Assembly: GCA_033763455.1 (NCBI GenBank) | Contig: JANRKO010000048.1 | Span: 1 to 55,607, forward strand | Length of the DNA stretch: 55,607 nt | Source: Polyangiaceae bacterium | Lineage (GTDB): Bacteria > Myxococcota_A > Polyangia > Polyangiales > Polyangiaceae | Direction: 5' to 3' | Shown: positions 7,590 to 33,150 of the stretch, in pieces | Numbering within the stretch: the stretch's first letter is position 1 | How the letters are laid out: each line of letters begins with the position of its first letter | The notes under the pieces: generated by a model | The model's database searches: none | Told to the model about the DNA's origin: nothing | The model's input: the letters and a program-made list of their open reading frames with translations, nothing else | Program-made: the position numbers and the translations under genes

Positions 7590-7604
7590 GTCTGCTCGAA
7601 GGGT

Positions 7605-13420: not shown

Positions 13421-15255
13421 GGCTCAATCCGCAGGACGGTGGTGGCGGCCGTCGACTTCTCCTCGTCCTTCACGAGCCCCGTGCAGCCTGCGTGAGAGCC
13501 GAGGGCGGCCCGTGTGATGGCGTTGAGGACGAGACGAGCGCGCTCTCGGCACGCCTCGCTGTCGCGGATGACGCCTGCGATTTCCTCGTAGGCGAGATAG
13601 TCGGTCTTCGCCCGGCCCGGGCCATCCTTGGTCTTGAACTTCGCTAGCACGTCGGCGACCGATGATGCGCTCCAGTTGAGGCGCTCGTTGAGCGGCGGGA
13701 GCACAGCGGCTTCATCGGCGCTCAGAATCCACATCACCGCGTCCTCGATCTCCCAGCCCTCGCGCCAGGTGAGGACCGTCTTCGGGGCGTTGGTCGCTTT
13801 CAATAACCCGGCCAGCTTCTTCTGCCCTTCACTGTCGCCATCGACCATCGGCACGACGCCACGATGAAGCCGACGAAGCTCCTCGTACGTCTCCTGCACG
13901 GCCGAGGAGTGCGTGGGTACGACACCGACGACTGCACCGAATGGCGTGGCTTCGTCGGGCGTCGCACCGAACGCGTGCTCCCCGGTCTCCACAACATCGG
14001 ACAGCAGGCGAAGCCACTCGTGGTCGCCGCGCCCTTCGGGTACGAGCACCCGGTGGTGCATCAGCGCGTCGACGATGCGTGATCGATCGTCGAGGTACAG
14101 TTTGCGCTCAACAGATGTTGCGGTCGGTGCAAGCGACTTCGCCAGCATGGGCGTCGCGCTCAGCGCGCCACCCGCGCGGTCGATAACCAGCGTCGACGTC
14201 GCGGGGTAGAATGCAGCTACACGCGGCGCGTGGCTCGTGCAGATCGTCTGCTCCGAGATGGCGACGGCCTGAGCCACCAGCTTCCGTTGCAGGCCCGGAG
14301 GCACATGCAGCTCGGGTTCCTCTAGGGCGAGGATGAACGGCAACCCCTTCTTGCGACGCTCGCGCCCGATCTCAAGCAGGAGCACGAAGGTCTGCAGCGA
14401 GAGAATGCCGGTTCCATGCCGGCTTGCAGGTAGCACCGCCCCGCCCGAGGGGGCGTAGTGCGGCACGAGACCTCGAAGCAGCGCCTCGGAGTCGGTAGCC
14501 GTGAGGCGGAGCTTGAGCTGCGGAGCATCGGCGAGCAGTTGGCGGAACTGCTCGTTCATCCGTTCGACAAGCGGCTTCAGCAGCGCATCGTCCTCAAGTG
14601 GGTTCGTCGGAGCGCGAAGTCGATCGCGTTCGGCGAGCAACGTCTGCGCTGGGATGCCTCCCAGCGTCGCGACGGCACGCCGGAACAGCTCCGACGCGAA
14701 GGAGACCGTCGCCTCCCAGGTGCGACGCACGGGTAGCACGAAGAAGCCGATCTCGTTGAGGAGTCGGTTCGGAAACTGGTTGACGGCGTCCTCGTCGAAC
14801 GGGTCCACCGCGTCGTCGTCGTCGTGGAAGTAGCGAAGCTGCTCGACCTTCAGGTCCTCGTGGTCGAATCGCGCCGCGAGGCCGATCTGCACGCACAGAG
14901 TTGCGGCGTGGGCCGACTGTTGCGGCTCGACCGTATTCGTCTTCGCGTTCCACCACTTCGGCACGCCCCGCCCGTCGCGGAACCACTCGTGGTGGTCATC
15001 GGGTTCCTCGGTGGAGAAGCCGCCAATGGTTGCGACGAGACGGAATCGCGTCGCCTCGGCGGGCGCGCTCCCGAAGAAATCATGCTCGGTCAGCTCGCGC
15101 ACCAGCTGCGTGCGGCCGAACGTGAGGGAGAGCGCATCGAGGATCGTGCTTTTGCCCGAGCCGTTCGGTCCGACGAGTGCGGCGTGCTGGCTGAAGACGA
15201 CGCGGGCCTTGCGAACACCACGAAAGCCCTCGATGTCGAGCGCAAGTACTCTCAT
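13417..15255 (-). CDS. gajA: OLD-family ABC-ATPase/TOPRIM nuclease (GajA-like)
   Basis: IEGFRG, GPNGSGKST, LEEPELHVPP, TSHAP; TOPRIM motifs VPEG..D, VDGDSEG and EIED. ATG at 15255 preceded by AAAGAGG. Confidence 0.83.
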   Translation of the reverse strand: MRVLALDIEGFRGVRKARVVFSQHAALVGPNGSGKSTILDALSLTFGRTQLVRELTEHDFFGSAPAEATRFRLVATIGGFSTEEPDDHHEWFRDGRGVPKWWNAKTNTVEPQQSAHAATLCVQIGLAARFDHEDLKVEQLRYFHDDDDAVDPFDEDAVNQFPNRLLNEIGFFVLPVRRTWEATVSFASELFRRAVATLGGIPAQTLLAERDRLRAPTNPLEDDALLKPLVERMNEQFRQLLADAPQLKLRLTATDSEALLRGLVPHYAPSGGAVLPASRHGTGILSLQTFVLLLEIGRERRKKGLPFILALEEPELHVPPGLQRKLVAQAVAISEQTICTSHAPRVAAFYPATSTLVIDRAGGALSATPMLAKSLAPTATSVERKLYLDDRSRIVDALMHHRVLVPEGRGDHEWLRLLSDVVETGEHAFGATPDEATPFGAVVGVVPTHSSAVQETYEELRRLHRGVVPMVDGDSEGQKKLAGLLKATNAPKTVLTWREGWEIEDAVMWILSADEAAVLPPLNERLNWSASSVADVLAKFKTKDGPGRAKTDYLAYEEIAGVIRDSEACRERARLVLNAITRAALGSHAGCTGLVKDEEKSTAATTVLRIEP

Positions 15256-15776
15256 GCGACTGCCTCTTTTCGGAACTGGTAGTTCGCGATGAACGAGGAC
15301 GACGTGGTGGCGTCCCCTCGGGCCACGCGGTTCGACAGCAAGCACGATGCAAAGAGCGCTTGCTCGAAGAGTCGCGGCGAGTACGCCCGCAGGTCTGGCT
15401 GGAGAACCGCGCGAAACGCCTCCAGCCGTTCCATGTTAAGGGGCATGAGAGGTTGACGGGCGAAGAGGGCACGGACGAGGCGCGCCGCGCGTTCACGGAG
15501 AATGTTGTTCTCGGGCGCGGCATTTACCGCGAGAAATCTGTGTGTGGGCCCCCTTACCCGTATGTTTGCCAGGTCCGCTGCATCCCCCTGGCCGACCGAC
15601 CGCGGGGCAGCCTGTCGCTGAGGCGAAGACGGATGGCTCCAGAGAACATCCAGGCGAGGCCTATCGAGAACCTCTCCGTCCGGAAGCGGCATTCCAACTT
15701 CGACAGCCGGCCCGAAGCCAAGCTTGCTCCCCATCGTTACTACGTGCTCGTATTGTTCGTTCGTGGCATTTCGCAT
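15252..15776 (-). CDS. Hypothetical protein coupled to gajA, possibly a degenerate PD-(D/E)XK-like protein
   Basis: ATGA overlap with gajA; G.KLGF...EV...RLDVLW resembles the start of a restriction-endonuclease fold, but no clear (D/E)xK follows. Confidence 0.45.
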   Translation of the reverse strand: MRNATNEQYEHVVTMGSKLGFGPAVEVGMPLPDGEVLDRPRLDVLWSHPSSPQRQAAPRSVGQGDAADLANIRVRGPTHRFLAVNAAPENNILRERAARLVRALFARQPLMPLNMERLEAFRAVLQPDLRAYSPRLFEQALFASCLLSNRVARGDATTSSSFIANYQFRKEAVA

Positions 15777-16737: not shown

Positions 16738-18102
16738 GTGGGAGAAGCAACAACCGAGTTCACAACCTATTGTCCTGCGTGCGGGCAGGCCCTGGCGCTC
16801 TCGGCTACTAAGCTGTCGCCCTACATTCGATGTCCGAGATGCAGCCAGAAGCTGACAACGGCCGAGCTCGTCGGGCACTCCGTTCCAGTGCCACCCGTGC
16901 CGGCGTCTGCGCCCCCTTTGTTGAACACAAATCCCGAACCGGCAGCGAGCGGTACTGGCGCCATCGCAGAACCCATCGAAGAAGTCGCGCTGTCGCCCTC
17001 GCTCGCGCAATCGTTCGACCCTCTCGGTCGCGTTTCCGGGTTCGGACGAAGGGTCTTGACCGCCTGCGAGAGGCTCGATCAACTCTTGACTGGCAAGCGC
17101 GTCTGGGTGCTTTCGATTGCGGCGCTGACTTCGGGCGTCGTGGCGCCGTTTCTCGATTCGATGCCAGGGGACGATTCACGCCTACTGGGCCCATTTACGG
17201 CGGTCGCTACGGTTGTTTTCCTCTTTCTGTGCTGGTTGTTTGCATTTGCGTTTGCCGGTAGCCTGCGGAACGAGGATGGGGGATGGCAAGGCGGCCTCGT
17301 GCTTGTGCGCGTTCGCGCCGCCTTTGTGGACTTGTGCGCAAGGTTCACCGAATTTCACGAATCCACCGGCCGTCAGAGGTGGCTAATCTTGTCTTGGGTA
17401 ACACTGTTAGGTGGTGTGGCGGTGTTAGGCGCCTCGAAGGGATTGGCTCTGGCTTTCATGGCGCTATCAGAGATCGGGGTGCACTCGACGCTGGGCGGTA
17501 GCGCAGCCCAGCTGGCGGAGTTTGGATGGCCCCTGGTGGTTTTGGGGGGTCTCACCTGGTTGCTCTCGAAACTAGGGCAACGAAGCACTCACGCGGCCTC
17601 GGAGGCGGAGTTACGCGTGTCGACCGACGCAGCGCGCCGTCTTGGGGCTATCATCAACTTGGACGGGCGTGCACGCGACTTTGGAGAGGTTACGCTCGTG
17701 CACGAAGTACTTACCGCGCTCAGCAAATGGAAGACAAGGAGATGGTCCTCAGAAAAGGAATACCAGGATTCACTGGAGAGGCACCTCGAACGGGCGATCC
17801 CTCAGCTCCAGTTAGAGCGTGAAGTAAAAATGGGAGCAACGCGTCGCGATGGTAAGGCCGACTTTGTTGTTGCGAATGCGATTATCCTTGAACTGAAACG
17901 AGGCTTTCGAAAGAAGTCGGAACTCGATCGAATGGTGGGGCAAATGAGAGGCTATGCGAGGCGGTGGCCGGAAAGACCGGCGATCTTGGTGGTGTTCGAA
18001 GCCTCCGTCGACGACGTCTTGAGCGGCCCCGTTACCCCAGAACTTGAGCAACTCCACGCTCACCAGCCGATGCTAACCGTACGTATGCCGACGCCTAAGT
18101 GA
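16738..18102 (+). CDS. Zn-ribbon + about 4 TM + C-terminal PD-(D/E)XK (GxxExxY-like) nuclease domain protein
   Basis: CPACG...CPRCS; four hydrophobic segments; SEKEYQDSL...EREV...KADFVV...IILELK...GQMRGYA. Confidence 0.78.
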   Translation: MGEATTEFTTYCPACGQALALSATKLSPYIRCPRCSQKLTTAELVGHSVPVPPVPASAPPLLNTNPEPAASGTGAIAEPIEEVALSPSLAQSFDPLGRVSGFGRRVLTACERLDQLLTGKRVWVLSIAALTSGVVAPFLDSMPGDDSRLLGPFTAVATVVFLFLCWLFAFAFAGSLRNEDGGWQGGLVLVRVRAAFVDLCARFTEFHESTGRQRWLILSWVTLLGGVAVLGASKGLALAFMALSEIGVHSTLGGSAAQLAEFGWPLVVLGGLTWLLSKLGQRSTHAASEAELRVSTDAARRLGAIINLDGRARDFGEVTLVHEVLTALSKWKTRRWSSEKEYQDSLERHLERAIPQLQLEREVKMGATRRDGKADFVVANAIILELKRGFRKKSELDRMVGQMRGYARRWPERPAILVVFEASVDDVLSGPVTPELEQLHAHQPMLTVRMPTPK

Positions 18103-18392: not shown

Positions 18393-19823
18393 CTACTGAC
18401 AAGTCCCCGCGCTACAAACCGTGCCGCCACTGGCGACGCAATCTTCAGCGAATGAGCACGCCCCAGCGTTAGCCGGCGCACAGCTGATCGCCACGCTGGA
18501 TGCCTCCTGCGCGCAGTTGCCACAGCTCAGCTCATTGCCTTGGGCATCGTAATCACAGCCAGCCAACGGCGCTGCGCCCAACTGGCAAGGATCGCCTACT
18601 GTACCAAGCGTGAAGCTCCCGTCGGCTGCCGTTTCGGTAAACAACGCACTGTCGACAATGCTCCCGTTAGGGCATTCCGCCGCGTAGCCGTCGCAAATCG
18701 TGAATACTGAGTTGTTTTCTGTATCCTCGACCTGCGTGCAGCTTTCCACCGCATTGTCACTGTCGATATTCTCCGTCCAAGTAAAAGAATTGCTGCCAGC
18801 GTAGTTAGCCTGATGAGTTACCGAAATGTAAATATTCACGCCATGAACCGTGAGGTTCACGTCCGGCTGATCGAACGGGATCACGGTGGGGGTGGAGGAA
18901 ACAGGATGGTCGATCCCTTTGGCCACCAGAGGTGAAGGCGTGAGGGGGATACTCAGAGCCGCTTCGCAAGTGCCCTCGTTGCAGATGTTTGGAGAGGTGC
19001 AATCGACGTCGTCCAAGCACTGCGTGCCAACTGCCGGCGAGCAAACGATATCTTCGCCGCCCCGGCCAACGGCGCAGACGCCACAGGACAGCTCTACGTC
19101 GTGCTCGTCATAGTCACACCCCAGCAAATCAGCACCCGAACCGCACAAATTCGTGCCTGCTGTGGCCACCGAATAGCTTCCATCGGGTGCCAGCTGAACG
19201 AAAAGGATCGCGTCGGGAATTGCTGTGTTGTCCTCACACGTCGTAGCAAACCCAGTGCACGTGAGAAACGTATAGCCCGTTTCAGCGTCATCAACCTCAG
19301 TGCAGGACTCCATATCGCCGTCACCGTCGACATCGGCGGACCACGTCCAGGTCTCGTCGCCAGTGTCGCCCGCGCCCTCTACGGTCGAAATGTTGATGAT
19401 GGTCGTGTTGTTAACGACAACCGTTACGTTCGTGACGGGAGCCGCAGCAACAGCCGAAACGGGCTTCGTTGTGGCAGTCTTTCCCGTCATCGCGAGGATC
19501 TTTTTGGGTTTGCCCGTGCCTCCTGCACCACCGGTGCCAGGAGAGCCACCCGTCGTCAGCGCACCGCCGGAGCTTGTTGCCCCACCCGCGCTGGAGGTTC
19601 CGCCGGCGGCAGGCACACCGCCTGTGCTCGACATTCCGCCAGCGCTATGAGCACCGCCAACGGTCGAGGTGCCACCTGTGCTTGGCGCGCCGCCGGTAGT
19701 TGTTGTGCCACCCGCGCTTTGTGTGCCGCCGGTGCCCGGCGTTGCGGGCGGGGATGAACTGCCTGATGAACATGCAAAAACGACCAGTACGAATAGTGAT
19801 GACAGTAAGAGCTTCGAATACAT
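18393..19823 (-). CDS. Cys-rich lipoprotein with Gly/Thr/Ser linker and two tandem Cys/Asp-rich domains
   Basis: MYSKLLLSSLFVLVVFAC lipobox with AAGAGGAAG RBS; (T/A)GG linker; two roughly 95-aa repeats TW..D.D.D...ESCT.V.D.E...GCDYD...ELSCG.C. Confidence 0.85.
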   Translation of the reverse strand: MYSKLLLSSLFVLVVFACSSGSSSPPATPGTGGTQSAGGTTTTGGAPSTGGTSTVGGAHSAGGMSSTGGVPAAGGTSSAGGATSSGGALTTGGSPGTGGAGGTGKPKKILAMTGKTATTKPVSAVAAAPVTNVTVVVNNTTIINISTVEGAGDTGDETWTWSADVDGDGDMESCTEVDDAETGYTFLTCTGFATTCEDNTAIPDAILFVQLAPDGSYSVATAGTNLCGSGADLLGCDYDEHDVELSCGVCAVGRGGEDIVCSPAVGTQCLDDVDCTSPNICNEGTCEAALSIPLTPSPLVAKGIDHPVSSTPTVIPFDQPDVNLTVHGVNIYISVTHQANYAGSNSFTWTENIDSDNAVESCTQVEDTENNSVFTICDGYAAECPNGSIVDSALFTETAADGSFTLGTVGDPCQLGAAPLAGCDYDAQGNELSCGNCAQEASSVAISCAPANAGACSFAEDCVASGGTVCSAGTCQ

Positions 19824-20132
19824 TTTTGGCTTCCTCTTAGATTCTTGAATCGACGCGACACTTAGTTCTTCGCCCGTCCTGTGCTGGGTCGGGCTCCACC
19901 GCGTGGAGAAAATCCGCACCTGGCTCCGCTCGCACGTGTTCGCACATGCGACATTCCGCATGACCGCGAGCAACACCGTGCAGCTGGGTGGCACCATGAC
20001 CGCGCAAGCGCTCGGACCAGTTCAAGCGGATATCTGCACCACTAAACTGGCGGGATCGTCCCGAGCCACCCAGCCGTGCGGCTTCGATGGCGCTGATAAT
20101 TCGCTGGGGCCTGAGCATTTTCGGAATCTTAC

Positions 20133-20175
20133 ACGTACCCAGAGTACGTTTCAATAGCACGTACTATCAGTTCAT
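20133..20175. promoter_or_regulatory. Tandem operator-like palindromes upstream of the XRE gene
   Basis: Perfect ACGTAC-N5-GTACGT (20133-20149) and degenerate ACGTAC-N5-GTTCAT (20159-20175). Confidence 0.5.
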
Positions 20176-20210
20176 CGCTAGCCGGCCTTTTCGCGGCTTT
20201 TCTGGCGAGG

Positions 20211-20567
20211 ATGAACCCCGCCGAGAAAAGGGTGGCAGCCAAAATCGGCACCGCCATACGCGCCCAGCGCACCCAGCGCCGCTGGTCCCAAGCCCTGCTT
20301 GCCGAGCACATAGGGACCAGTGTGGAACTCGTGTCATTCCTGGAACGGGGTGAACGGATGCCCTCGGTCGCAACACTGATCCGACTTGCCTCGGCCTTAG
20401 AGGTACCGATCGCTACGCTTTTCGGGGAACAGGAACATCTCGTCGAAAAACGTGACCCCGCCGTTGCGTTGCTTCAAGCCTTACCAGAGTCAGCTCGGCC
20501 ACTCGTTATCGGCATGCTCCGCGGGGCGCTCGCGGTTTACCGAACGAAGAAGAAGGGGTCGCCTTAG
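20211..20567 (+). CDS. XRE-family HTH transcriptional regulator
   Basis: IRAQRTQRRWSQALLAEHIGTSVELVSFLERGERMPSVATLIRLASALEVPIATLF. Confidence 0.9.
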   Translation: MNPAEKRVAAKIGTAIRAQRTQRRWSQALLAEHIGTSVELVSFLERGERMPSVATLIRLASALEVPIATLFGEQEHLVEKRDPAVALLQALPESARPLVIGMLRGALAVYRTKKKGSP

Positions 20568-20841
20568 GTCAAGGCTACCGGCTAGGCCCTATGGGCCGCT
20601 ATCCGAGGGGCCCTCCGCAGATCCGACCTGACCACAAGGCCGTATTCGCGAGTAGTTAGGATTCACGCAACTGGCAACGGCTCATAGCTACGCAATTCCG
20701 ATCGCGCGTGGCCCGGAGCGAGGGGGAGCCAGCCCCGTGAACTGGTGGCTTGACGCTCTGGCAACGACATGTAAACGTCCTGGGTTTGCAGGCAATCTGG
20801 CACCGATTAGGCAGGCGACCTGCACTTGCACAGGGTGAATC

Positions 20842-21957
20842 ATGCGCTGGAATCTCGTTGGTGCGTTGCTGCTAGTCGCCAGCACAAGTTCAGGCTGTGG
20901 AACAGCCGCAGCAGTAAGGCCAGAGCTCGTATCTGGCGCCAGCGGCCCGCTGGTTGCACGACCTAGCGCGCAGCTGCTTGACGATGGGCTGAGCCCATTC
21001 GTCGTGGGTTGGGAGGCGTCACAGCTAGCGGATTTCCAGGCACAACTCTCTCTCGGGCAAATCGTAATCGTCCACTTCGACCGTGGCTTGTTGGTGCCGC
21101 TTAAGAGGTGCTCGACCGAGGGTACCTATTTCCATCAGAACGTTGCTGTCCAGACAGGAGTGACGTCGGACCGCGACCGTTCGAGCGTCGGAGCGGGGGC
21201 CTTAGGTTTTGGAACACAGGTTGCCAGCGAGCGCACAATCGCCTTCAAGTATGCAATATCGGGCAAGCTGGGCACCAATCGCGAGTTTGTGCGACGCTCA
21301 GAGTTGAGAGGCTACTACTGCGATGGGGCGACTCACTTTGTGAAGGGCGCGATGACCGGTGCATTCGAACGCAACGGTACGGCCCAGGGGTCCCTCGGTG
21401 CGACGGGCGACGTGGCTCCCCTGCACGTTGCCGGAGAAAGTCGGAGCGAACGGAACGAGAGTGCCCAAGGAGGGATCCTGTCTGCTTGCCTGCAACGTCA
21501 AAACTCGGCGCTGGTTGGCTACGGCAACATGGATCCGAGTGCCAGTGATGGGTGCAATTCACTCATTCGGCTGGAGCTTCAGCCAATCGACCCTTCCGTA
21601 ACTGCCACCGTCAGCCTTGTTGGGTTCCGCGTGAGCGACGATTTGGACGCTTTTAGCCTCCCTGACATGAAGTTCCGCTTTGAAACGGACAGAGGCAGGA
21701 CAATCCCAACTGAAACATTTCCAGATCAATCAACGTGGCAGGGTTCCATCCCCGTAGGGGCGTTCGAAGTTGTTGAACACACATTCCTGACCGTCCAGGC
21801 AATCGATGATGACGATCTTGAGGATGACGCAGTGGGGGTGGCCCGACTGAACTCGCTTGAGCTATCCAGGGGCGGCTCGATCGAAAAACTGCTGCTCGCA
21901 GATGGACAACAAGTTGGTGAAGTCACTTTCCAGATCGATCTGCAATATGGGCCCTAG
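20842..21957 (+). CDS. Lipoprotein with putative MACPF-like domain and C-terminal Ca2+-binding C2 domain
   Basis: Signal peptide ending SSGC; GATHF-x6-GA, later QGG and LIRLELQPI (MACPF-like); C2 pattern DLDAFSLPD...TETFPDQSTW...LTVQAIDDDDLEDDAVG. Confidence 0.6.
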   Translation: MRWNLVGALLLVASTSSGCGTAAAVRPELVSGASGPLVARPSAQLLDDGLSPFVVGWEASQLADFQAQLSLGQIVIVHFDRGLLVPLKRCSTEGTYFHQNVAVQTGVTSDRDRSSVGAGALGFGTQVASERTIAFKYAISGKLGTNREFVRRSELRGYYCDGATHFVKGAMTGAFERNGTAQGSLGATGDVAPLHVAGESRSERNESAQGGILSACLQRQNSALVGYGNMDPSASDGCNSLIRLELQPIDPSVTATVSLVGFRVSDDLDAFSLPDMKFRFETDRGRTIPTETFPDQSTWQGSIPVGAFEVVEHTFLTVQAIDDDDLEDDAVGVARLNSLELSRGGSIEKLLLADGQQVGEVTFQIDLQYGP

Positions 21958-21989
21958 CATCGTATTACCCAAGCCAGCGGAAGGAACTT

Positions 21990-22457
21990 ATGACTGAGTC
22001 AGCAAGTATGAAGTTGTTCCCGGACGAACGGATCTTGCTTGAAGCCAATTCCGGGTTACTCAAGCTAACTACTCATCGAGTACGTTTTGAACATCAAAGA
22101 TCCGGAGATTCGGTGGTGATCGGGATCACACTCGACGCGGTGGCCTCATGCGGGCTTGTAACTACCACCTACCCGATCTTGCTGCTCCTCGCTCTACTCG
22201 CAGCGATAGGCGGACTTGCGAGCTCCAGCCACGACTCCGGCGCCATGCTCTGGCTTTTCCTTGCCGCTTGCTTACTGGTGCTGGCCTATTTCCTATCGAG
22301 AAAAGTAGTGCTCCGGATATCGTCCGCCGGCGACGACATCATTGTCGGAGTGCAACGGGTTGGGAGGGCTCCGCTCCTGGAGTTCATCGACGCGTTGGAG
22401 CAGGCAAAGGTCCAGCGGCTGGAGAACTCGGCGGCTGCGCGACGCCAGGCAACCTAG
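21990..22457 (+). CDS. Small 2-TM membrane protein (PH-like beta core interrupted by a TM hairpin)
   Basis: DERILLE...LKLTTHRV...ITLDAV beta pattern and two TM helices; GAAGGA RBS; 32 bp after the previous gene. Confidence 0.7.
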   Translation: MTESASMKLFPDERILLEANSGLLKLTTHRVRFEHQRSGDSVVIGITLDAVASCGLVTTTYPILLLLALLAAIGGLASSSHDSGAMLWLFLAACLLVLAYFLSRKVVLRISSAGDDIIVGVQRVGRAPLLEFIDALEQAKVQRLENSAAARRQAT

Positions 22458-22622
22458 TGCTTGCACACATGCGCCTCGACGGCGCCAAGCGATCCCGCAA
22501 GGCACCACCTACGTCCCCCCCAGCTTCAAGCCACAACAGACGTGCACGGGAACAGCCCTTGCGCCGCAAACATCGCAATGCTTGTGGCGTAAGGGCTGTG
22601 ACCAGCCTCCTACGGCTTCAAG

Positions 22623-22952
22623 TTACCACCAGCGCCTAAACTTCCCGTTATAGCGCCGATAGCGTTCGACACGCGGATCCCAAGATGAGATTTGTCTGAG
22701 GAACAACGACGCGCCGACACCGATCGCCGCTGCGAACCCCAGGCTTATCATGTGGCCCGCAGTATTCGGCCGGACGGGCACCTGCGTCCGCGGTGGAGGT
22801 TGCGGCACACGGCTTGCCGTAGCTGGGGTCCACGTGGGGGCAGCAAGCTCGTCCCCTCCCGAGGGTGTATCCAAGCTCCGAGCAAGCGCGACCCAGTAGT
22901 CGGCCTCGTTGGGTAATGCTTCTGCTGGCTTTGATTTGATCATGGTGGTCAT
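22623..22952 (-). CDS. Hypothetical single-TM protein with basic/aromatic C-terminus
   Basis: ATG 22952 with AAGGAAG RBS; hydrophobic segment followed by WDPRVERYRRYNGKFRRWW. Confidence 0.55.
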   Translation of the reverse strand: MTTMIKSKPAEALPNEADYWVALARSLDTPSGGDELAAPTWTPATASRVPQPPPRTQVPVRPNTAGHMISLGFAAAIGVGASLFLRQISSWDPRVERYRRYNGKFRRWW

Positions 22953-23096
22953 TCCAATTTCTTCCTTTCTGTTTGCAAGACTCCTGAATCCAGGAGGGAA
23001 CACGGGTGAGGGCATCAAGCGGCGGCCTAAATCTCAGGGGCGCGACCAAGGGCGTCCGCAGATCCGAACGAGCCGAATGCGCAGACCAGGGGCCAC

Positions 23097-23409
23097 CTAC
23101 GCAGGCTCCCTATCGTGACAAATAGGGGCCGCTGAGGGTTTGCTGATGAACGCCTCAAGCTGCGTTTCGGTAACTCGTATCGAGTTAGCCACCCTCGCGT
23201 GCCCAAGCTCACCTCGCTGGCAAAGTGCGTAGACGGTCGCCGTGGACACGCGCAACCGGGCGGCCACCTCGCGTACTGTAAGCAATCTCCCCCTTGCAGC
23301 CTGCAGCACGGGTGCAGCAAACGGGTGGCTAATCCCTGCTAAACCCTGGAGCCTTTGGACTCGGACGCTAGCCCCAACCTGAGCGTTTCCGGCAACTTGC
23401 AACTCTTTA
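23097..23409 (-). CDS. Excisionase-like HTH_17 domain (orphaned C-terminal tail, copy A)
   Basis: LLTVREVAARLRVSTATVYALCQRGELGHARVANSIRV; frame stays open through the att repeat; homologous to 33523-33823. Confidence 0.75.
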
Positions 23410-23501: not shown

Positions 23502-24203
23502 CTACAGGGGGAGCTCCGTGCACGCCCTACCCCGCTCTGCCAGCCATCGCTTCCGCCGCTCGTAGTCCGGCATTGCTCGCTCCACCCGTGCCCAGAACTT
23601 AGGAGTGTGATGCGCCTCCAGCATATGCACTAGCTCGTGCACGACGACGTATTCGATGATCGGAGGCGGCAGAAGTACGGCACGCCAATGGAAGAACAGA
23701 CGCCCACCTTTGCCGCACGAGCCCCAGCGGTAGCCTAGGTCCTGCACGTTCACCGCCGTAGGTTCTACGCCGACGCGACGCTGGAAGCGCCCAACCCGAT
23801 TCTCCAGCCATGGCTGCCCGCGCTCAGAATACCAGCGGACCATGTGGGCGCCACCCTCCTTGGCGGCCGAACGGAGCATCTTGAACCGGCCGCGCTCTAG
23901 CTTTACCGGCACCTCTTGCGCGTCAACGAGGACGAGCCGGTAGCTGCGGCCGAGGTAAGAGAAACCTTCGCCGCTAACGAATTGTCTCTTCGGTGCCGCA
24001 GGCCCGAGGGCGTCTTTCTCGGCGAGCTTTGTATAAATCCAGAAGCGCTTCTCCCGGACAAACTTTTCCATCACGCGAATCGAGCAGCTCTCGGGTGCCG
24101 AGAGGAGCAGTTCGCCGCCGCGGTCGACGGTTATCTGCACTGACTGCCTGCGCGCACTACGACGCACCTCGAAGCTCAAATCCCCAACTGTGAGCTGGTT
24201 CAC
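23502..24203 (-). CDS. M48/YgjP (DUF45) metallopeptidase associated with type I R-M
   Basis: RWGSC, YVVVHELVH...HHTPKFW; GTGA overlap with hsdR. Confidence 0.92.
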   Translation of the reverse strand: MNQLTVGDLSFEVRRSARRQSVQITVDRGGELLLSAPESCSIRVMEKFVREKRFWIYTKLAEKDALGPAAPKRQFVSGEGFSYLGRSYRLVLVDAQEVPVKLERGRFKMLRSAAKEGGAHMVRWYSERGQPWLENRVGRFQRRVGVEPTAVNVQDLGYRWGSCGKGGRLFFHWRAVLLPPPIIEYVVVHELVHMLEAHHTPKFWARVERAMPDYERRKRWLAERGRACTELPL

Positions 24204-27200
24204 GTACCCCTCGTCAGCCGCTCGTGATTCGCCTTGGCGAGGTCCATCAACCGATCAGCCACAGCATCGGCGTTGTCAAAGTCGACAACGTTGTTGTCGT
24301 CGAGAAACATAAAGAGTTTGCCGCGCAGCTCTTCTTGCCTGGTGGCGCTCTTCCAGAATCCAACGTTGCTGACCTCATCACGGATGAGGCGGTCAACCAT
24401 GTCAAGGGTCAGGCTCGCCAGCCATTGCTGGTCTTTCTGGCCCACCGGCGAGGTCTTGCCGCGCTCTTGTTTCAGGATGTCGAAGAACGGGGAGTGGATC
24501 TGCGGATCGAGCCCGGGGACGCCTTCGTCTAGCGTGCGACCCTTCTTTACCTCCTCAACGAACGCCTGGAGCGCGAGCGCGAGTTGCTCCCAGCTGTCGC
24601 CAAACTTGCTCAAGATCTCTTCGAGCCGCTCGGAGAGCTTCTGGTAATGCACCGGATCTTCATCGAGCTTCTTCTTGATGTGGTGCCGGATAGCGTGTTC
24701 CATCTCGGACGCTTTTGCGCGGTTCGAAACTTGGCGGCCGACTTGTTCGGCGAACTTGGCATCCGTGATGGCAATGGGGGGGATGCGCGGATCGATACCG
24801 AGCGAGATGATGTGCTCATCGATGAGCGCCTGCACCTTGCGGCCGACACTCTTGTCGAGCTGGGGCAGACCCTCACGGTAGCGGTTTCGTGCTCGCGCGT
24901 AGATCTCTCCGAGTCGTTCGGCATCGCGCACGAACGGCAGGGCTTCAGGGCGAGGCAGCACGAGATCCAGTGTCGCGAGGAACTGCTTCAATTTCACGGT
25001 AAATTCGGCTCGGAGGCGCTCGTCGCGCAGCGCTTCGATGGCTGCCTCGGCATCACCCATTACCTCAATGCTGCGAGACTCGAATAAACTCATCACGCGC
25101 GTATGCCGGTCGCGGAGCTTCGGGATCTCGTCGGCAAGGCTTTGCAGCGCTCCTTCGATATCTTCGGCGGTATACGCGGTGAGGGCTTCCTTTAGGTGCT
25201 TAGCGATGCCGTAGTAATCCACGACAATGCCAGCCGTCTTCCCGTGGCCGGTTCGGTTCACCCGCGCGATGGCCTGAAGCAGCTCGGCCTCTCGGATGGG
25301 GCGGTCGAGGTACATCACACCTTCGATGGGCGCATCGAAGCCGGTGAGAAGCATCGATTTGACGATTAGAAACGCGAGCGGGTCGCACTTCTCGGGATCC
25401 TTGTGCTCAAACGGCCGCTTGAAGCGGGCGATGCGGCTCTCCATCTTGGTGGCATCGCTCCACTCGCTCCACTCGGGCGGATCGTTGTTGTCAGGCGAAA
25501 TAATGGCCGCAAATTCAAGCGCGCGAAGGCGGTCAAGTTGGCGTGCGGCACGAACAGCGGCACGCAGCTTCTTCGGTTTTCCGTAAAGCTCCAGATCGTC
25601 AAGCTTGCGTGTGTCCGCATCGAGGTTTTCGGCCTCGCTCACGCGTGTATCTCTCGCGGCGGTCAAGGCCGCCTGGTAGCGCACGGCGGCCCGCCTGCTG
25701 ATCGCGACGAGCTGCGCCTTCAGCCCATTGGGCAAGATATTCTCGACATAGTGGCGGAGCATGTCGCTCGCCTTGTCGGCGATAACCTCTTCGGCTTCGA
25801 GGATGGCATGGAGCGTGCCATGCTTGCGTTTGAGGGCCTCGCGCTCCTCCACGCTCATCTCCGGGAACATCTCCGCCAGCTCATCGTCGAGCCCGGCGGC
25901 GTTGGACACGGCGCCTTTCGCATAACGACCCTCGTAAAGAATCGGCACGGTGGCGCCATCGGCCTCCGACTCCTTGAGGGTGTAGCGGTCGATGAACTCG
26001 CCAAAGATGTCATGTGTGCGCTTCTTGTCACCCATGATGATCGGCGTGCCGGTGAAGCCAATGCGCGCGCAGTTCGGCAGCGCCTGAAGCAGTGCCGCGT
26101 GGAGCGCACTCCCGTGGCTGCGGTGCGCTTCGTCAACCATCACCAGGATCGCTTCGTCGTCGTTCAGAAGGCCAATATCGCGCAATTCGTCGTCGGGCCC
26201 GAGCTTCTCCAGATCGCGATCAACGTACTTCTGGATGGTCGCAAACACGATCTCGGGCCCAGGCTTCGCAAGAAGCTTCTTCACGTCGCGGATGCTCTTG
26301 CCAACGTTCACCGTCTCGCCGATGAGCCCTGCCGTCTCGGAGAGTTGCCGCTGCAGATCTTTGCGGTCGGTGACGATGACGGTCTTGAACTTCCGCAGCT
26401 CAGCCACCGAGCGCATTTTCCGCACTAGGAACACCATGGTGAGGCTCTTGCCCGAGCCCTGCGTGTGCCAGACGATCCCACCACGCCGGTCGTGCTCACC
26501 GTCTTGCTTCCTCGTTTTGCCGGTGCGCAACCGCTCGACGGCGTAGTGAACAGCGCGGAACTGCTGATAGCGACAAACCACCTTCACGGTGCGGCTGTTG
26601 ACCTGCTGGTAAATCGTGAAGTGGCGAATGATGTCGAGCAGGTGCTCCGGCCGCAGCATGCCCGCAATCAGCTTGTTTTGGCTGGAAAGTGTCGGTTTGT
26701 TCAGCTCGACCTGGACATCGGCAAGCGGGACGGGCGCGGTATCTTTCCACTCCAGGTAGTGCACCGCATCCGCCCCGATAGTGCCAACCCTAGCCTCGTC
26801 GTAGCTCGTCGCGATCACAAATTGGTTGGTGTAGAAAAGCCGCTCTGCGCCTTCGTTCTCATCGACCTCACCCGCGTCCTTGCGGGCGTTGTGGTAACGC
26901 CGAAGCTGGTCAATCGCGCTTGCCAGTGGCTCGGAGATAGTCGGGCTCTTGCACTCCACGACGACCAAGGGGATGCCATTGATGAACAGCGCGATATCGG
27001 GGCGTATCGAGCCCTTCGACATGCCACCATGGCAATCGACCTTGAACTGATTCACAGCCGTGAACATGTTCTGCTCGGGGTGGTTCCAGTCGATGAAGTG
27101 AACGGTCTTGTCGCGGCCTTGGTCCCAGCCGGGTAATCCCTCGACGGTGACACCATCGAGCAGGAGTTTCGTCGCTTCTTGGTTCGCCTCCATCAGGCGC

Positions 27201-27451
27201 GCGTGGCCGATGCGTTCGAGTGCGCCGATGGCTTGCGCAACGCGGGGGGCGTCAAGCCAGGGTTTGCCGTCGCGCAGGTTGATGCGCATGAGCGCCTGCG
27301 CGAGGTCGTCCTTAATGAGCACTTCGCGGAAGTTCTCGCGCCCCGTCACCGTGGGGTTATCGACACTGCCAATGACGATCTTCCAACCCATCGAAGCGAG
27401 CTGGTCGAGGAAGGGATTCTCGACGTAATCGAACTCGGGGCCGCCGCTCAT
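24200..27451 (-). CDS. hsdR: Type I restriction endonuclease subunit R
   Basis: RPDIALFINGIPLVVVECK, QLRRY, HTQGSGKS, DEAHRS, FTGTP, MLLTGFDAP and QAIARVNR motifs. Confidence 0.97.
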   Translation of the reverse strand: MSGGPEFDYVENPFLDQLASMGWKIVIGSVDNPTVTGRENFREVLIKDDLAQALMRINLRDGKPWLDAPRVAQAIGALERIGHARLMEANQEATKLLLDGVTVEGLPGWDQGRDKTVHFIDWNHPEQNMFTAVNQFKVDCHGGMSKGSIRPDIALFINGIPLVVVECKSPTISEPLASAIDQLRRYHNARKDAGEVDENEGAERLFYTNQFVIATSYDEARVGTIGADAVHYLEWKDTAPVPLADVQVELNKPTLSSQNKLIAGMLRPEHLLDIIRHFTIYQQVNSRTVKVVCRYQQFRAVHYAVERLRTGKTRKQDGEHDRRGGIVWHTQGSGKSLTMVFLVRKMRSVAELRKFKTVIVTDRKDLQRQLSETAGLIGETVNVGKSIRDVKKLLAKPGPEIVFATIQKYVDRDLEKLGPDDELRDIGLLNDDEAILVMVDEAHRSHGSALHAALLQALPNCARIGFTGTPIIMGDKKRTHDIFGEFIDRYTLKESEADGATVPILYEGRYAKGAVSNAAGLDDELAEMFPEMSVEEREALKRKHGTLHAILEAEEVIADKASDMLRHYVENILPNGLKAQLVAISRRAAVRYQAALTAARDTRVSEAENLDADTRKLDDLELYGKPKKLRAAVRAARQLDRLRALEFAAIISPDNNDPPEWSEWSDATKMESRIARFKRPFEHKDPEKCDPLAFLIVKSMLLTGFDAPIEGVMYLDRPIREAELLQAIARVNRTGHGKTAGIVVDYYGIAKHLKEALTAYTAEDIEGALQSLADEIPKLRDRHTRVMSLFESRSIEVMGDAEAAIEALRDERLRAEFTVKLKQFLATLDLVLPRPEALPFVRDAERLGEIYARARNRYREGLPQLDKSVGRKVQALIDEHIISLGIDPRIPPIAITDAKFAEQVGRQVSNRAKASEMEHAIRHHIKKKLDEDPVHYQKLSERLEEILSKFGDSWEQLALALQAFVEEVKKGRTLDEGVPGLDPQIHSPFFDILKQERGKTSPVGQKDQQWLASLTLDMVDRLIRDEVSNVGFWKSATRQEELRGKLFMFLDDNNVVDFDNADAVADRLMDLAKANHERLTRGT

Positions 27452-27702
27452 GGTGCGCCCCGGGTGCGTTGGTTTGCGACGTGGGCCTCGATCGGCCCTT
27501 TCGAGGCACTTTGGTTAGAGGCTTTGGTTAGAGCTTTGGTTAGAGCTTTGGTTAGCGTGGCGGCCGGGTGGCCGCTGCTCCAATGAACGGATTCTATGCG
27601 CGCGCTCATAGAGTTCGAGGGATAGAAAGTCCGCGAAATAATTGCCATTCCCTGCGACACAAGCCCTCTATGGCCGGGTTCTATGAACGGTCTATGGCTC
27701 AC
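27448..27702 (-). CDS. Short bridging ORF (84 aa), possible gene remnant
   Basis: 4-nt overlaps at both ends (GTGA, ATGA); contains a 12-bp tandem repeat. Confidence 0.35.
   Translation of the reverse strand: MSHRPFIEPGHRGLVSQGMAIISRTFYPSNSMSARIESVHWSSGHPAATLTKALTKALTKASNQSASKGPIEAHVANQRTRGAP
27509..27555. repeat. 12-bp tandem repeat GCTTTGGTTAGA, about 4 copies
   Basis: Units start at 27521, 27533 and 27545, with an offset copy at 27509. Confidence 0.9.
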
Positions 27703-28826
27703 GCCTCGTCCGGATCGTCTTGCTGCTTCTCGAAGGCCGACGCTTCCGTCAGGATCCAGCGACGGCCCGACTTCTGGAGTGTTCCGATCACGCGCACCCT
27801 GCGGCCCTCCTTGTGGGCCTGAATGGCGTCCGCGTAGGAGTTAGCATCAAGCTGCACCGAAACACGCCCTAATTCGCGCGCTTCTCCGTCTGTGGGCGCA
27901 ATCACAATCTCACCGTCAGCATCCCTTTCGCGCTTCTCGCGATCAAGGCGGGTGACGTAACCCACAACCTCAAACCCCTTGCTCTTCTCTTGGCTGCGCA
28001 TCGCCTCTGCGGCTACATCGAGACCAGCCAGAGCCTCCCCCGAAAAGCGAACCACCGAGACAACCCCCTCGGGGGCGCGCCGATTTCGCGCCCACGACAT
28101 TGAAAGTTCAAGCGACCCGGTGCCCCCGGGTGGTGCCATGGATGCAAGGGCCCCGAGAAGGTTCCCGCTGACTCCGTCCTTCTGTAGTTCGAGCAAGCCA
28201 TCGTACGCGCCGAGCGAGCGAACGCGGCGGACTCCGTCGAGCGCGCGAAGCAGGAGCTTCGTCACACGTCGACCGTAGGGCTCATCATCAAGCGAGAGCT
28301 GGCCCACCACCGGATCGACCGGTACAATAAATCGCGTAGTGAAGCTTCCACGCTGGGATTGGCCCTCGTGCACTGAGCTGAGCAGCTCCACGGCCTCTGT
28401 CCGGGACAGCCGAGGAAACCAAGCTTGCGCAGAGAGCACGCTGTGCGCAGCGGCAAGCAACAGAGTCTTCGTGCCCTGACGGAGCCGGAGCGAATCCTCC
28501 AGCGGAATCGTTCCTGTTGCAGTGGCTTCCGAATGAACCCGCAGCGCGAGCACGTCGCCTGCCGGCTGTAGCAGCGTGTCCAACAACTCCGTCGGCTTGA
28601 CCTTCTCAAGCTCCGCAAGAAGCCCAACCAGCTCCTCGACACGCCGAGCATAGTCCGCAAAATCGGTTCGCACGGGGACATCCAGCTCTACGCCATCTCG
28701 GCGATAAACGACCACGCCTTGTGCGTCCTGCCGATCATGCTCGACGTTCCAGCCCCGACTGCGGAGTTGCTCCTGCAGGGTCACCGGACTGAGCGACCGG
28801 GCGACTTCACGGAGATCGAGGTTCAC
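27699..28826 (-). CDS. Hypothetical protein, partner of the DUF4365 gene
   Basis: 375-aa ORF with 4-nt overlaps; N-terminal L..RGW...LDVP...DY.RR pattern and OB-like beta-rich C-terminus. Confidence 0.8.
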   Translation of the reverse strand: MNLDLREVARSLSPVTLQEQLRSRGWNVEHDRQDAQGVVVYRRDGVELDVPVRTDFADYARRVEELVGLLAELEKVKPTELLDTLLQPAGDVLALRVHSEATATGTIPLEDSLRLRQGTKTLLLAAAHSVLSAQAWFPRLSRTEAVELLSSVHEGQSQRGSFTTRFIVPVDPVVGQLSLDDEPYGRRVTKLLLRALDGVRRVRSLGAYDGLLELQKDGVSGNLLGALASMAPPGGTGSLELSMSWARNRRAPEGVVSVVRFSGEALAGLDVAAEAMRSQEKSKGFEVVGYVTRLDREKRERDADGEIVIAPTDGEARELGRVSVQLDANSYADAIQAHKEGRRVRVIGTLQKSGRRWILTEASAFEKQQDDPDEA

Positions 28827-29329
28827 GGCGTGGTTCCTTGGCTGACTTGTTCCATGATGCCACGCAGGGCCGAGGGAGAAAACACCTGTGCTCTTGGTAT
28901 CCGGACCGTTTTCGACTGGGCAGCCGGATCAAGGTCCATCTGTCCGGTCATAGTGACCCAGTATGCGCACCGACGGATCAACAGGTGGTTCACAGTATGC
29001 TCGATACTCTGACTGATGTCCGAGGGCAAAAGCAGCACAACAAGAAGGTGCGGCGCCGAAGCGGGAGCAACTAGGGCGTTGTAGTGGTCCGCTTCGAGCT
29101 GCCAAGAGATGAACTCGGGATGCTCGACGTCCGTGCGAGTGGTCGCCTTGAGCTGAATGTCGACCTTCGGCTTTGAAAGGTGCCCGCTGCCCACTGGCGA
29201 CGCCGCACCGACCGTCACGTCCACGCAGCCATGATCTTGGGTCCAAGCGCCGAGCGCAAACGAGCACTGCGCCACGACTGCGTGCAGATATGCTTTGCTG
29301 ATTTCTTCCTGTTGTTGTTCGGGCGTCAT
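28823..29329 (-). CDS. DUF4365 PD-(D/E)XK-like protein
   Basis: QEEISKAYL.AV, DHGCVD, DIQLKAT, YNAL, LLVVLLLP and AYWV motifs. Confidence 0.85.
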   Translation of the reverse strand: MTPEQQQEEISKAYLHAVVAQCSFALGAWTQDHGCVDVTVGAASPVGSGHLSKPKVDIQLKATTRTDVEHPEFISWQLEADHYNALVAPASAPHLLVVLLLPSDISQSIEHTVNHLLIRRCAYWVTMTGQMDLDPAAQSKTVRIPRAQVFSPSALRGIMEQVSQGTTP

Positions 29330-29448
29330 GGAGATTGCGAGATCGTGACGAGTGCTTCAGAGGCGATGAGGTGGTGTTCCATGGAGTTCTGCTTTGTCAA
29401 GCAGGGGGTTCTGCCTTCCGCGGGCGCCGGTGTGACGTGGCGGTTCAT
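29326..29448 (-). CDS. 40-aa bridging mini-ORF
   Basis: ATG overlaps the hsdS stop (ATGA) and its TGA overlaps the DUF4365 ATG. Confidence 0.3.
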   Translation of the reverse strand: MNRHVTPAPAEGRTPCLTKQNSMEHHLIASEALVTISQSP

Positions 29449-30738
29449 TCGGCGGCGGACTCCAGGAGTTTGGTGACGCGCACGCGTCCGGTGAGGAGGT
29501 CTTCCATGAGGCCGGATTTGAGGAGGCGAAGCTTGGCTAGGTGGACCGCCTCTTCGGCCACGCGAAGTCTGTGGGTTCGCGCAACCATGGAGATCCGGCG
29601 CTGTTCCTCTCCGCTCGGAACGGGGAGAACCAGCGATTGGAGAATCTCCGTGTTCAGGTTCACCATGGTCGACCCAACCGCCCGGGCCGCAACCTGCCGC
29701 TGAATGGTGTCGTGCCGATAGGAGGCGGCAAGCCATTCCGCGTCGAGCGCGTGCTCGGGTAACCGGGCGAGAAGGCAGCCCGTTCCGCAGATCCATTCCA
29801 ATTCACGCGTTCCGATCGGAGCGCACCGAGACAAGTCGCCTCGGCGTGCGAACACAAGGTCGTTCGACTTCATTCGATGGCGTGCGAGCCGGGAGGCGAC
29901 TCGCTCCGGTATTCGAGCCACGGACTTCGTCGACACGCCATCGTCTGAAATGTCTTGTGGCATCACGACTGGGACACCCACTGCGCTGTATTCATACGAG
30001 TGAAGCTGGGAGCCAAATGGACCGGTCTGAAGAAAGCCCCCGCAACGAGCAAGATGGCTCCCCAGACGCGTGGCCTCCCACTCCCTCGGAATTCGCCCCA
30101 GCGGCGAGTCCTTGAACTGCTCGGGATGGCGCTCGGGGTCGCGCAGCTCGCCGTTGTCGTCGATGCCGCGGGTGAGGAGGTCGTGGAGCAGGCCCTGCTT
30201 GACCTGCTTCAGCTTGGCGATGATCTGCTCGGTTTTGCGGATGGCGTCGTCGATGGTGTCGAGGATCGCGGCGATCTGGCGCTGCTCGGGGAGGGGTGGA
30301 TGGGCCAGTCGAAACGCTTCGAGTGCTGTTTTGCTAAGGTTTGGCTGCCCGGACCCCTGTACCGACGCCAGCATCTGCGGCGCCGCGCGCTTGAGAGCCC
30401 AGAAAAGCCACCTCGCGTCGGCCAGCGCAAGAGAGGGTTCGGTGGCGAGCACGGCTTGATTGGTCGTCGCCCGTATTCCCAACCATGAGACTTGCCCCGC
30501 CGTCGCCCCGTACATCGCAATTAGCGGGGTGTCGGGCGGCACCCAGCGCGCCGATGAATTCGAGAGGCCGGCGAGCGAAATTGTCTCTTCGCTCTCTTGA
30601 ATCTCATCAGCGTTTACTTCCCCAGATTTCACCCACGGGATTCCCCCGCCGAAGTTTGAAGCGAGCGCACGACTGGGCGTCCCTCCGGCGTAGCAATCGG
30701 CCAGTTCGTCCAGACGCAAAACACCCCAAGAAGCAGGC

Positions 30739-30749
<11 letters not shown>
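29445..30749 (-). CDS. hsdS: Type I R-M specificity subunit
   Basis: Two TRDs (GGTPSR...; [10 protein letters not shown]...) with conserved [13 protein letters not shown]...[10 protein letters not shown] and EEQRRI...[11 protein letters not shown] regions. Confidence 0.96.

Positions 30750-33150
<2,401 letters not shown>

Follow-up and report, generated by a model that had tools for sequence, protein, structure and literature searches.

We analysed a 55,607-nucleotide (nt) stretch of DNA from a Polyangiaceae bacterium (contig JANRKO010000048.1, positions 1 to 55,607; referred to here as the window), in which one gene on the forward strand encodes a protein of 371 amino acids (aa). Its signal peptide and lipobox cysteine, both read from the sequence, identify it as a predicted bacterial lipoprotein. 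On balance, we consider it probable that this protein is a lipid-anchored β-barrel pore former of the MACPF/CDC/gasdermin kind, which would be directed to its membrane by a Ca2+-dependent C2 domain. According to the structural models, its N-domain is a minimal version of about 200 aa, in which MACPF and gasdermin types are not separable by fold alone, and the similarity of its modelled C-domain to the C2 fold is clear. The positions of all features are collected in Table 1; in the residue numbering used, codon n begins at 20842+3(n-1).

Predicted structure and conserved motifs

The open reading frame (ORF) starts with MRWNLVGALLLVASTSSGC, a hydrophobic segment followed by Cys19. AlphaFold2 modelled the protein from 117 sequences with a predicted local distance difference test (pLDDT) score of 87.3 and a predicted template modelling (TM) score of 0.78, as a small head, two very long β-hairpins forming a four-stranded sheet, and a β-sandwich. 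Its elements are, in order, a helix (59-70), two short strands, a first hairpin (96-120/123-145, with strands of 25 and 23 residues), a short irregular stretch, a second hairpin (165-191/194-210), a helix (213-219), a less confident loop (221-240), a strand (240-248) and an all-β domain (252-370). In residues 21-50, which precede the head, the means of 10-residue blocks were 72, 50 and 57, with pLDDT below 50 at 37-45.

When the full model was compared by Foldseek with 350,542 chains of the PDB, 134 matches were found at E ≤ 1e-3. The best was the pore form of lymphocyte perforin (7pag, E 1.8e-10, 451 columns), followed by the pleurotolysin pore, C9 in the membrane attack complex, the pneumolysin pore and a Trichoplax gasdermin pore; monomeric perforin also matched (3nsj, E 1.7e-6). 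The N-domain was also modelled alone (residues 46-255, from 63 N-domain segments of related loci; pLDDT 74.3), and the approximately 40 rows among its ranks to 50, with similar chains collapsed, were all MACPF, CDC, CDCL or gasdermin structures. Soluble forms were present among them, namely TgPLP1 (probability 0.99), listeriolysin (query-normalised TM 0.41), stonustoxin, C8, GNIP1Aa and monomeric C9, together with gasdermin pores (6vfe, E 6.8e-4; 8sl0, E 1.4e-2) and the CDCL structure 8g33. In the ESM Atlas, which uses a different predictor, the nearest neighbours outside the family were gasdermin D (TM 0.47), a thiol-activated cytolysin cluster (0.54) and MACPF_SNTX clusters (0.47 and 0.46), and a feature neighbour at rank 17 (score 0.84), with Bact_GSDM in 13% of its members, is a lead only.

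The second line of evidence is a motif. MACPF proteins carry Y/W-G-T/S-H-F/Y-X6-GG on strand 3 and a second conserved glycine pair further on, both pairs being thought to lend flexibility, and the solved Bth-MACPF likewise deviates from this consensus, as described in the available text of PMC2954219. CDCs have the same glycine pair, which is essential for the prepore-to-pore step (PMC7527733, available text). In our protein, GATHFVKGAMTGA (residues 162-174, 21325-21363) reads G-A-T-H-F-x6-G-A and agrees with the strict motif at four of its seven specified positions with exact spacing; T164-H165-F166-x6-G173-A174 opens the third long strand of the model, and G210-G211 ends the fourth, where it corresponds to the second glycine pair of MACPF/CDC type after the second insertion region. 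The reduced pattern TH[FY]-x6-G[GA] was contained in 98 of 200,000 shuffles of the protein, and among the 515 stop-to-stop ORFs of at least 60 aa in the window it occurred in this protein only.

Conservation was assessed in 117 relatives taken from a phmmer search and not selected by motif. C160, H165 and G173 were invariant in them, and A163, T164, A174, F175, G211, C216 and C238 were kept in at least 90%, so that the signature and G211 are among the best-conserved positions; the pair G210-G211 was invariant in all eight sequences of alignment A1, which holds the members sharing the C-terminal domain (C2-type). The cysteines C90, C160, C216 and C238 were invariant or nearly so among the 117, a pattern that would fit an exported, disulfide-bonded protein. 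Column-averaged hydrophobicity, in the eight C2-type sequences and in 64 N-domains of the broad family (alignment A4), showed a period of two around residues 114-134, a region that includes SSVGAGALGFGTQVASE (residues 114-130), and around 181-199. About ten alternating residues per strand may be enough to span a bilayer.

The C-terminal ~120 aa were placed by Foldseek on solved C2 domains with target-normalised TM of 0.63-0.76 and a root-mean-square deviation (rmsd) of 2.5-3.9 Å. The structures matched were those of ITCH, intersectin-2, cPLA2, E-Syt and perforin C2, and the rows included 3jzy (TM 0.76, rmsd 2.5 Å), 7a1r (0.73), 2nq3 (0.70), 1rlw (0.69) and the perforin C2 domain 4y1t (0.63, rmsd 3.1 Å), all with probability 1.00. 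A Pithovirus phospholipase C row from a viral structure library, assumed to cover its C2 domain, aligned over 135 columns with an rmsd of 3.6 Å. Sequence models recognised the domain faintly: Pfam C2 (PF00168) gave no match above its cut-off in the protein and reached E 0.058 in one of the eight C2-type members, while a further relative, P0088, scored E 7e-4 (20.2 bits against a cut-off of 22) and also weakly matched the profile of the C2-type C-domain. Searching the PDB with the A1 profile returned only rows at E~1, two of which were plant C2 proteins; the acidic loop D322-D329 was aligned, non-significantly (E 0.95), to DHDTFSSDDFIG of one of these, 5yq3.

Two acidic segments of the C-domain, with the family patterns WDG..S.PDP.F and D.D.L..D.IG, resemble what we take to be the Asp-bearing loops 1 and 3 of Ca2+-binding C2 domains. 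Six of the eight C2-type members have both, and P0008 and P0016 have neither, a joint presence and absence that is expected if the two loops act together.

A preliminary description of this stretch, made from its letters, had proposed a MACPF-like core followed by a C2 domain, and structure prediction supports this layout in both halves, with perforin 7pag as top match and the C-domain on solved C2 structures. The ORF list and residue count reproduced its gene boundaries and motif coordinates, and the order that it gave (signature, second transmembrane hairpin (TMH2), GG and the LIRLELQPI strand, the last at residues 241-249) was recovered in the AlphaFold2 model, in which its TMH1 and TMH2 segments are the two long hairpins. 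It had called the signature imperfect; spacing, third-strand position and the conservation of H165 and G173 speak for the motif, with agreement confined to the four positions given above. Concerning the Asp pattern of the C2 domain, D.F...D (D269-D275) and L.VQ..D.D...DD..G (L316-G332) were found, while its 'T...D...W' was one residue off, the protein having T292-F-P-D295-Q-S-T-W299, that is, T..D...W. Its reservation about an N-domain of only ~200 aa was justified, since the domain fails all sequence models of MACPF, CDC and gasdermin.

Relatives of the N-domain

An exhaustive phmmer search with the lipoprotein returned 963 representative proteins at E ≤ 1e-3, 152 at E ≤ 1e-10 and four, the query included, at E ≤ 1e-30. 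Among the best 150 of the 963, nearly all matches were limited to query residues ~5-260, and the C-terminal domain was aligned as well in seven (P0003-P0008 and P0016; 26-36% identity in A1). In a quick maximum-likelihood tree of 116 N-domains, from which P0006 was left out as its N-part is shorter than 150 aa, the seven C2-type rows stood together on one side of a branch with Shimodaira-Hasegawa-like approximate likelihood ratio test (SH-aLRT) support of 96; the C2 fusion therefore marks one clade.

Across the family the N-domain is constant and its C-terminal partners vary, as is likewise the case for CDCL toxins, which combine a conserved core with varying C-terminal partners (PMC7527733, available text). 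Pfam identified Sel1 repeats downstream of the N-domain in 42 of 78 relatives, FGE-sulfatase in two, TPR alone in one and nothing in 33; none of these 78 had a Pfam match on the shared N-domain itself. Among 27 further members, two had Sel1, two FGE-sulfatase, one a DsbA-like thioredoxin domain (DSBA/Thioredoxin_4, P0140) and one the sub-threshold C2 of P0088, and 21 had none; the FGE-sulfatase fusions are P0128, P0146, P0013 and P0063. The stonefish MACPF toxins among the Atlas neighbours likewise carry a thioredoxin-fold domain, which may be compared with the fusion in P0140. A profile search of longer proteins gave 217 matches, and the source names of longer relatives were sel1 repeat family, tetratricopeptide repeat, TPR repeat, and uncharacterized or hypothetical protein. 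Given only such names and no Pfam family on the N-domain, this is an unannotated module.

By a loose lipoprotein test of our own (a hydrophobic segment followed by [GAS]C within the first 60 aa), applied to the 234 motif-containing members with an initial M, 186 passed; the residue after the lipobox Cys (+2) was Gly in 113 of the 186, and the failures were mostly apparent truncated gene calls. Scanning with GATHFV[RK][GA]A found 121 stretches, of which 115 encode relatives as judged with alignment A3 as query, and the best 80 were kept. The A4 loci were picked by this pattern, which builds GATHFV invariance into A4, and A4 is therefore no evidence for that motif. All record titles of the loci belonged to the Myxococcota lineage or to an unresolved 'delta proteobacterium', with Polyangiaceae, Polyangia, Myxococcales, Labilithrix, Kofleriaceae, Sorangium and Chondromyces among the host names. 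A single-protein pattern scan of the GTDB species representatives gave 599 pattern matches and no relative among them, so the lipoprotein is without a close homologue in that set.

Annotation searches with the lipoprotein itself found no family in Pfam (E ≤ 1), NCBIfam or PADLOC, and phmmer against PDB sequences gave noise at E>1 alone. The MACPF model PF01823 matched none of the 78+27 relatives at E ≤ 1e-3, and the A2 profile matched only Sel1/TPR chains in the PDB, through the C-termini of the relatives. A word-indexed homologue search returned the protein and a distant relative, P0002, and with the C-domain alone the protein only, which reflects the index and not absence. In a literature search, with most subscription journals outside its scope, the family was undescribed, and no link of MACPF, gasdermin or pore formation to it or to Polyangia genera was found.

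Proposed mechanism, alternatives and genomic surroundings

Considering these results, we propose a plausible model of action. After Sec export and lipidation, the protein would reside on the outer membrane, the cell surface or vesicles. Its C2 domain may then attach to a target bilayer through Ca2+ held in the Asp clusters, and membrane-bound protomers would associate by the edges of the four-stranded sheet. The distal parts of the hairpins (~114-134 and 181-199) would cross the membrane as a β-barrel to which each protomer contributes four strands, like the pores of MACPF, CDC and gasdermin proteins. Where C2 is replaced by Sel1 repeats or other modules, which is the case in most relatives, these may serve as alternative targeting parts. 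Prey bacteria, competitors or eukaryotic grazers are candidate targets, and the role of a toxin for predation, competition or defence, suggested in the preliminary description, may apply to the protein.

A bolder version of this model, which we put forward only tentatively, is that the N-domain is the smallest natural MACPF-type pore-forming domain and a true homologue, which at the size of a gasdermin domain has kept the signature of perforin and the glycine hinge. It would found a large family of lipid-anchored pore formers (at least 963 clusters at 50% identity), so far in Myxococcota only, of which one clade joined a Ca2+-type C2, the whole forming an arsenal with exchangeable targeting. 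The perforin-like MACPF-C2 layout in bacteria would then be either an independent invention or the product of old shared ancestry.

Several observations weigh against pore formation. Hairpin 1 contains the charged run SDRDRSS, the hairpin tips had pLDDT below 50 in the N-only model (protein residues 113-127 and 183-203), and AlphaFold2 yielded the extended form only. There was also no recognisable immunity gene.

Other such observations point to the rival that stands up best, a non-lytic scaffold or anchor, in which the N-domain would hold different working domains at the producer's envelope, with its sheet soluble or in the producer's own outer membrane, and no target cell would be attacked. 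Non-lytic MACPF proteins exist, e.g., astrotactins. The Sel1, FGE-sulfatase and DsbA-like partners are of common periplasmic protein-protein or redox types and also fit a non-toxic periplasmic role. Several assemblies have three or four loci each, e.g., four from JACPVJ01, and the family is therefore multi-copy. The neighbours in 18 family loci are ordinary, varied and largely housekeeping-like, and the Sel1-type majority has a conserved DE..AN motif within hairpin 1, unusual for a membrane-spanning segment. Against this, the hairpins with their alternating hydrophobic tips stick out of the head with no predicted cover, the signature and glycine pair, which in MACPF and CDC proteins serve to rearrange the sheet, rank among the most strongly conserved positions across the family, and the C2 fusion mirrors a known killer architecture. 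We regard a purely non-lytic role as unlikely, though the partner domains and the multi-copy, housekeeping-like occurrence of the family still speak for it.

The structural comparison itself may be questioned. The pore-former matches are weak (TM by query 0.13-0.41, rmsd 8-40 Å), with the N-domain alone TM was below 0.5 for all superfamily matches, and only three N-domain matches reached E ≤ 1e-3 (C9, the gasdermin D pore and the TgPLP1 MACPF domain). In a control with the viral library, which held no meaningful relative, the full model matched tail fibres and levivirus maturation proteins at E 2e-4 to 2e-2; such E-values for unrelated viral β-proteins mean that E-values alone say little about a long β-rich model. 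No profile link was found either: the Pfam models of MACPF, CDC and gasdermin matched none of the 64 N-domains at E ≤ 10, and the A4 profile matched no PDB chain at E ≤ 10. The N-domain could accordingly be of another fold, an artefact of β-rich prediction with a coincidental motif match that departs from the strict motif at three positions. This appears improbable to us, as a single superfamily fills all N-domain rows to rank 50 out of a library with many β-rich proteins, the second predictor points the same way, and the rarity of the motif in shuffles, its spacing, its third-strand place and the glycine pair after the fourth strand agree. The structural argument draws its weight from the fact that the PDB matches are so uniform and agree with the motifs, and not from the scores.

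The window is a defence island (Table 1), and it could be supposed that the lipoprotein is an anti-phage or abortive-infection effector, which under the upstream helix-turn-helix (HTH) regulator and with the downstream PH-like membrane protein would perforate the producer's own membrane from the periplasmic side. The gene lies between the Gabija pair and the type I restriction-modification (R-M) block with PDC-M02, CBASS is further upstream, the HTH protein matches defence-related PADLOC models, and gasdermin-type pores act in bacterial defence (bioRxiv 10.64898/2026.10.05.756811, available text); however, we find this very improbable, because neither the lipoprotein nor the downstream gene has a PADLOC match, the lipoprotein is by prediction exported and lipidated, in contrast to bacterial gasdermins, which work from within the cell and lie beside proteases (same text), no defence theme was seen in the 18 examined loci, and tblastn of six window neighbours against the 80 related loci found an HTH gene in two and nothing else. 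Pfam on 86 neighbour ORFs of the 18 loci likewise showed no recurring partner. As the neighbours do not recur, the island context was not used as functional evidence, and any functional link of the HTH and 155-aa genes to the lipoprotein is hypothetical. The Atlas neighbours of the 155-aa protein were unnamed bacterial clusters from several phyla, one with bPH_3 in 14% of its members, and a scan for promoters and terminators over 20000-23100 gave the same counts as in shuffles.

Table 1. Coordinates of the lipoprotein gene, its parts and the surrounding genes in the window.
Feature	Coordinates	Strand	Basis
Lipoprotein gene, 371 aa + stop; predicted minimal MACPF/CDC/gasdermin-like domain and C2-like domain	20842-21957	+	ORF list
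Signal peptide with lipobox-like SSGC end (Cys19; LVASTSSG-C19)	20842-20898	+	Sequence
Tether/linker, residues 20-50	20899-20991	+	Lower-confidence part of AlphaFold2 model
Conserved N-domain, residues ~51-250, family-defining module	20992-21591	+	phmmer coverage, Foldseek matches
Long β-hairpin 1, residues 96-145 (strands 96-120, 123-145)	21127-21276	+	DSSP of AlphaFold2 model; period-2 hydrophobicity
Signature C-x-G-A-T-H-F-x6-G-A-F, residues 160-175	21319-21366	+	Conservation, shuffle estimate, MACPF motif (PMC2954219, available text)
Long β-hairpin 2, residues 165-210 (strands 165-191, 194-210)	21334-21471	+	DSSP of AlphaFold2 model; period-2 hydrophobicity
Gly210-Gly211 pair closing fourth long strand	21469-21474	+	Conservation, DSSP
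Strand 240-248 (LIRLELQPI; consensus RLEL.PI in family), running into C-domain	21559-21585	+	DSSP; family consensus
C2-like β-sandwich, residues 252-371	21595-21954	+	Foldseek; block-mean pLDDT 90-97 over residues 251-370
Candidate acidic loop 1, D266-D275 (family WDG..S.PDP.F)	21637-21666	+	Alignment A1; presumed C2 pattern, not geometry
Candidate acidic loop 3, D322-D329 (family D.D.L..D.IG)	21805-21828	+	Alignment A1; presumed C2 pattern, not geometry
XRE-type HTH regulator, 118 aa, upstream of lipoprotein gene	20211-20567	+	Pfam HTH_3 E 6.3e-14; PADLOC HTH_VI, capH, control-protein
155-aa protein, PH-like N-terminus and two hydrophobic segments, 33 nt downstream of lipoprotein gene	21990-22457	+	ORF; sub-threshold Pfam only
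CBASS operon with HORMA and TRIP13 regulators, complete	6393-10047	-	PADLOC
CBASS cyclase	8962-10047	-	PADLOC Cyclase E 3.2e-130
CBASS HORMA	8486-8965	-	
CBASS TRIP13	7605-8495	-	E 1.3e-89
CBASS HNH-SAVED endonuclease effector	6393-7589	-	E 3e-117
Gabija pair	12089-15345	-	GajA-like ATPase 13417-15345, E 5.8e-43; GajB-like UvrD helicase 12089-13420, E 1.3e-21
Type I R-M block	23502-33306	-	hsdR 24200-27451, hsdS 29445-30797, hsdM 30739-33306
YgjP-like metallopeptidase adjoining hsdR	23502-24203	-	
Candidate defence pair between hsdR and hsdS	PDC-M02B 27699-28826; PDC-M02A/DUF4365 28823-29329	-	

Some further genes of the window were noted. Divergent from the HTH gene, 18393-19997 (-) encodes a protein of 534 aa whose N-terminus resembles a lipobox and which has a long linker rich in Gly, Thr and Ser as well as two Cys-rich halves similar to each other; Pfam, NCBIfam and PADLOC gave no match for it. 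The 454-aa protein of 16738-18102 (+), likewise unassigned, has an N-terminal zinc ribbon, hydrophobic segments in its middle and a C-terminus that weakly resembles PD-(D/E)XK_3/GxxExxY (E 0.01 and 0.075). Small HTH_17/'mad1'-like DNA-binding proteins at 23097-23402 (-) and 33523-34176 (-) flank the R-M block (PADLOC mad1, E 3.8e-8 and 2.6e-8), and their two genes may mark the borders of a mobile element. Opposite the hsdS frame, ARAGORN called a 93-nt tRNA-Pro(CGG) at 29582-29674 (+), the length and place of which suggest a false positive. Also counted to the defence island is a single protein of 1376 aa (35813-39943, -), in which a nucleotide cyclase domain (Guanylate_cyc; PADLOC PycC, E 4.9e-22) is fused to an AAA_16 ATPase and which may be an NTPase of signalling or defence. 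A DUF4236 and TerB-domain protein is encoded at 4021-5496 (+), upstream of the CBASS operon, and a TerB protein also adjoins a family member in another locus (L038, 9016-9522). In two loci, the family gene is immediately preceded by an ORF of 178 aa to which Pfam assigns no family (L003, 5226-5759; L004, 5227-5760); it is possibly the partner of a subgroup, or the two loci may simply be orthologous.

Comparison with known pore-forming proteins

Vertebrate perforin-1 (MACPF-EGF-C2; 7pag, 3nsj, 4y1t) is the closest parallel to the lipoprotein. Both have a pore domain, predicted in our case, followed by C2; perforin-1 is the best structural match, and T-H-F-x6-G with the same spacing and a later glycine pair are shared. 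In contrast, the MACPF domain of perforin-1 is far larger (target length 509-530) than the ~200 aa here, and our protein has no EGF module, no Pfam match to MACPF or C2, and a lipoprotein anchor. Its signature departs at three of seven specified positions, and the ancestry may be common or convergent.

The CDCLs and the MACPF toxins of Bacteroidota are also large bacterial families with a conserved pore core and poorly conserved C-terminal domains, according to the available text of PMC7527733 and PMC11952106, although they belong to another phylum and the core of the lipoprotein is much smaller. CDCLs have the motif F/Y-F/Y-Xn-YGR (PMC7527733, available text); identity with them was rejected, no YGR being present in the 371 aa. 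Bacterial gasdermins (8sl0; Bact_GSDM) have a domain of comparable size, and gasdermin pores are among the N-domain matches. They work intracellularly and depend on a neighbouring protease for their release, as stated in the available text of bioRxiv 10.64898/2026.10.05.756811, whereas the lipoprotein has a signal peptide, a lipobox and a MACPF-type signature. Being by prediction exported, with no adjacent protease and no match to the Pfam models Bact_GSDM or Gasdermin, it was not assigned to them.

The same preprint describes pyroptolysins, which combine a gasdermin-like N-domain with a CDC domain 4 (D4)-like Ig domain carrying a conserved WP motif. As far as its available text goes, they are similar to the lipoprotein in length (325-400 aa against 371), in having a small pore N-domain and a C-terminal membrane-targeting β-sandwich, in their environmental Gram-negative hosts, and in relatives mostly without conserved neighbours. 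They differ in that the C-domain here matches C2 and not CDC domain 4, and in that our protein is by prediction anchored through a lipobox. Identity with them, judged from the described features, was rejected, since residues 252-371 contain no WP and the stand-alone C-domain matches are C2 structures. Sel1, Myxococc-, lipoprotein and C2 domain are terms that do not occur in the preprint text.

If the lipoprotein forms pores, it would add to the MACPF/CDC/gasdermin superfamily a minimal member that is easy to express and has a MACPF-like signature at gasdermin size, and would bear on how these three groups relate, a question that the pyroptolysin preprint, in its available text, approaches from the gasdermin-CDC side. 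Hundreds of Polyangia genes named 'Sel1 repeat' or 'TPR' would then be reassigned to membrane attack with exchangeable targeting domains, which would be relevant to prey killing by myxobacteria or to grazer resistance, and a bacterial MACPF-like and C2 protein would offer a tractable model of perforin-like pore delivery guided by Ca2+ and C2. If it is non-lytic, it would still represent a large lipoprotein family, new in itself, in which a pore-former-like fold has a different function. The lipoprotein differs from perforin and the pyroptolysins in several ways: its core is of gasdermin size and has a MACPF-like signature, C2 takes the place of domain 4, the protein is by prediction anchored as a lipoprotein, and its family is restricted to Myxococcota.

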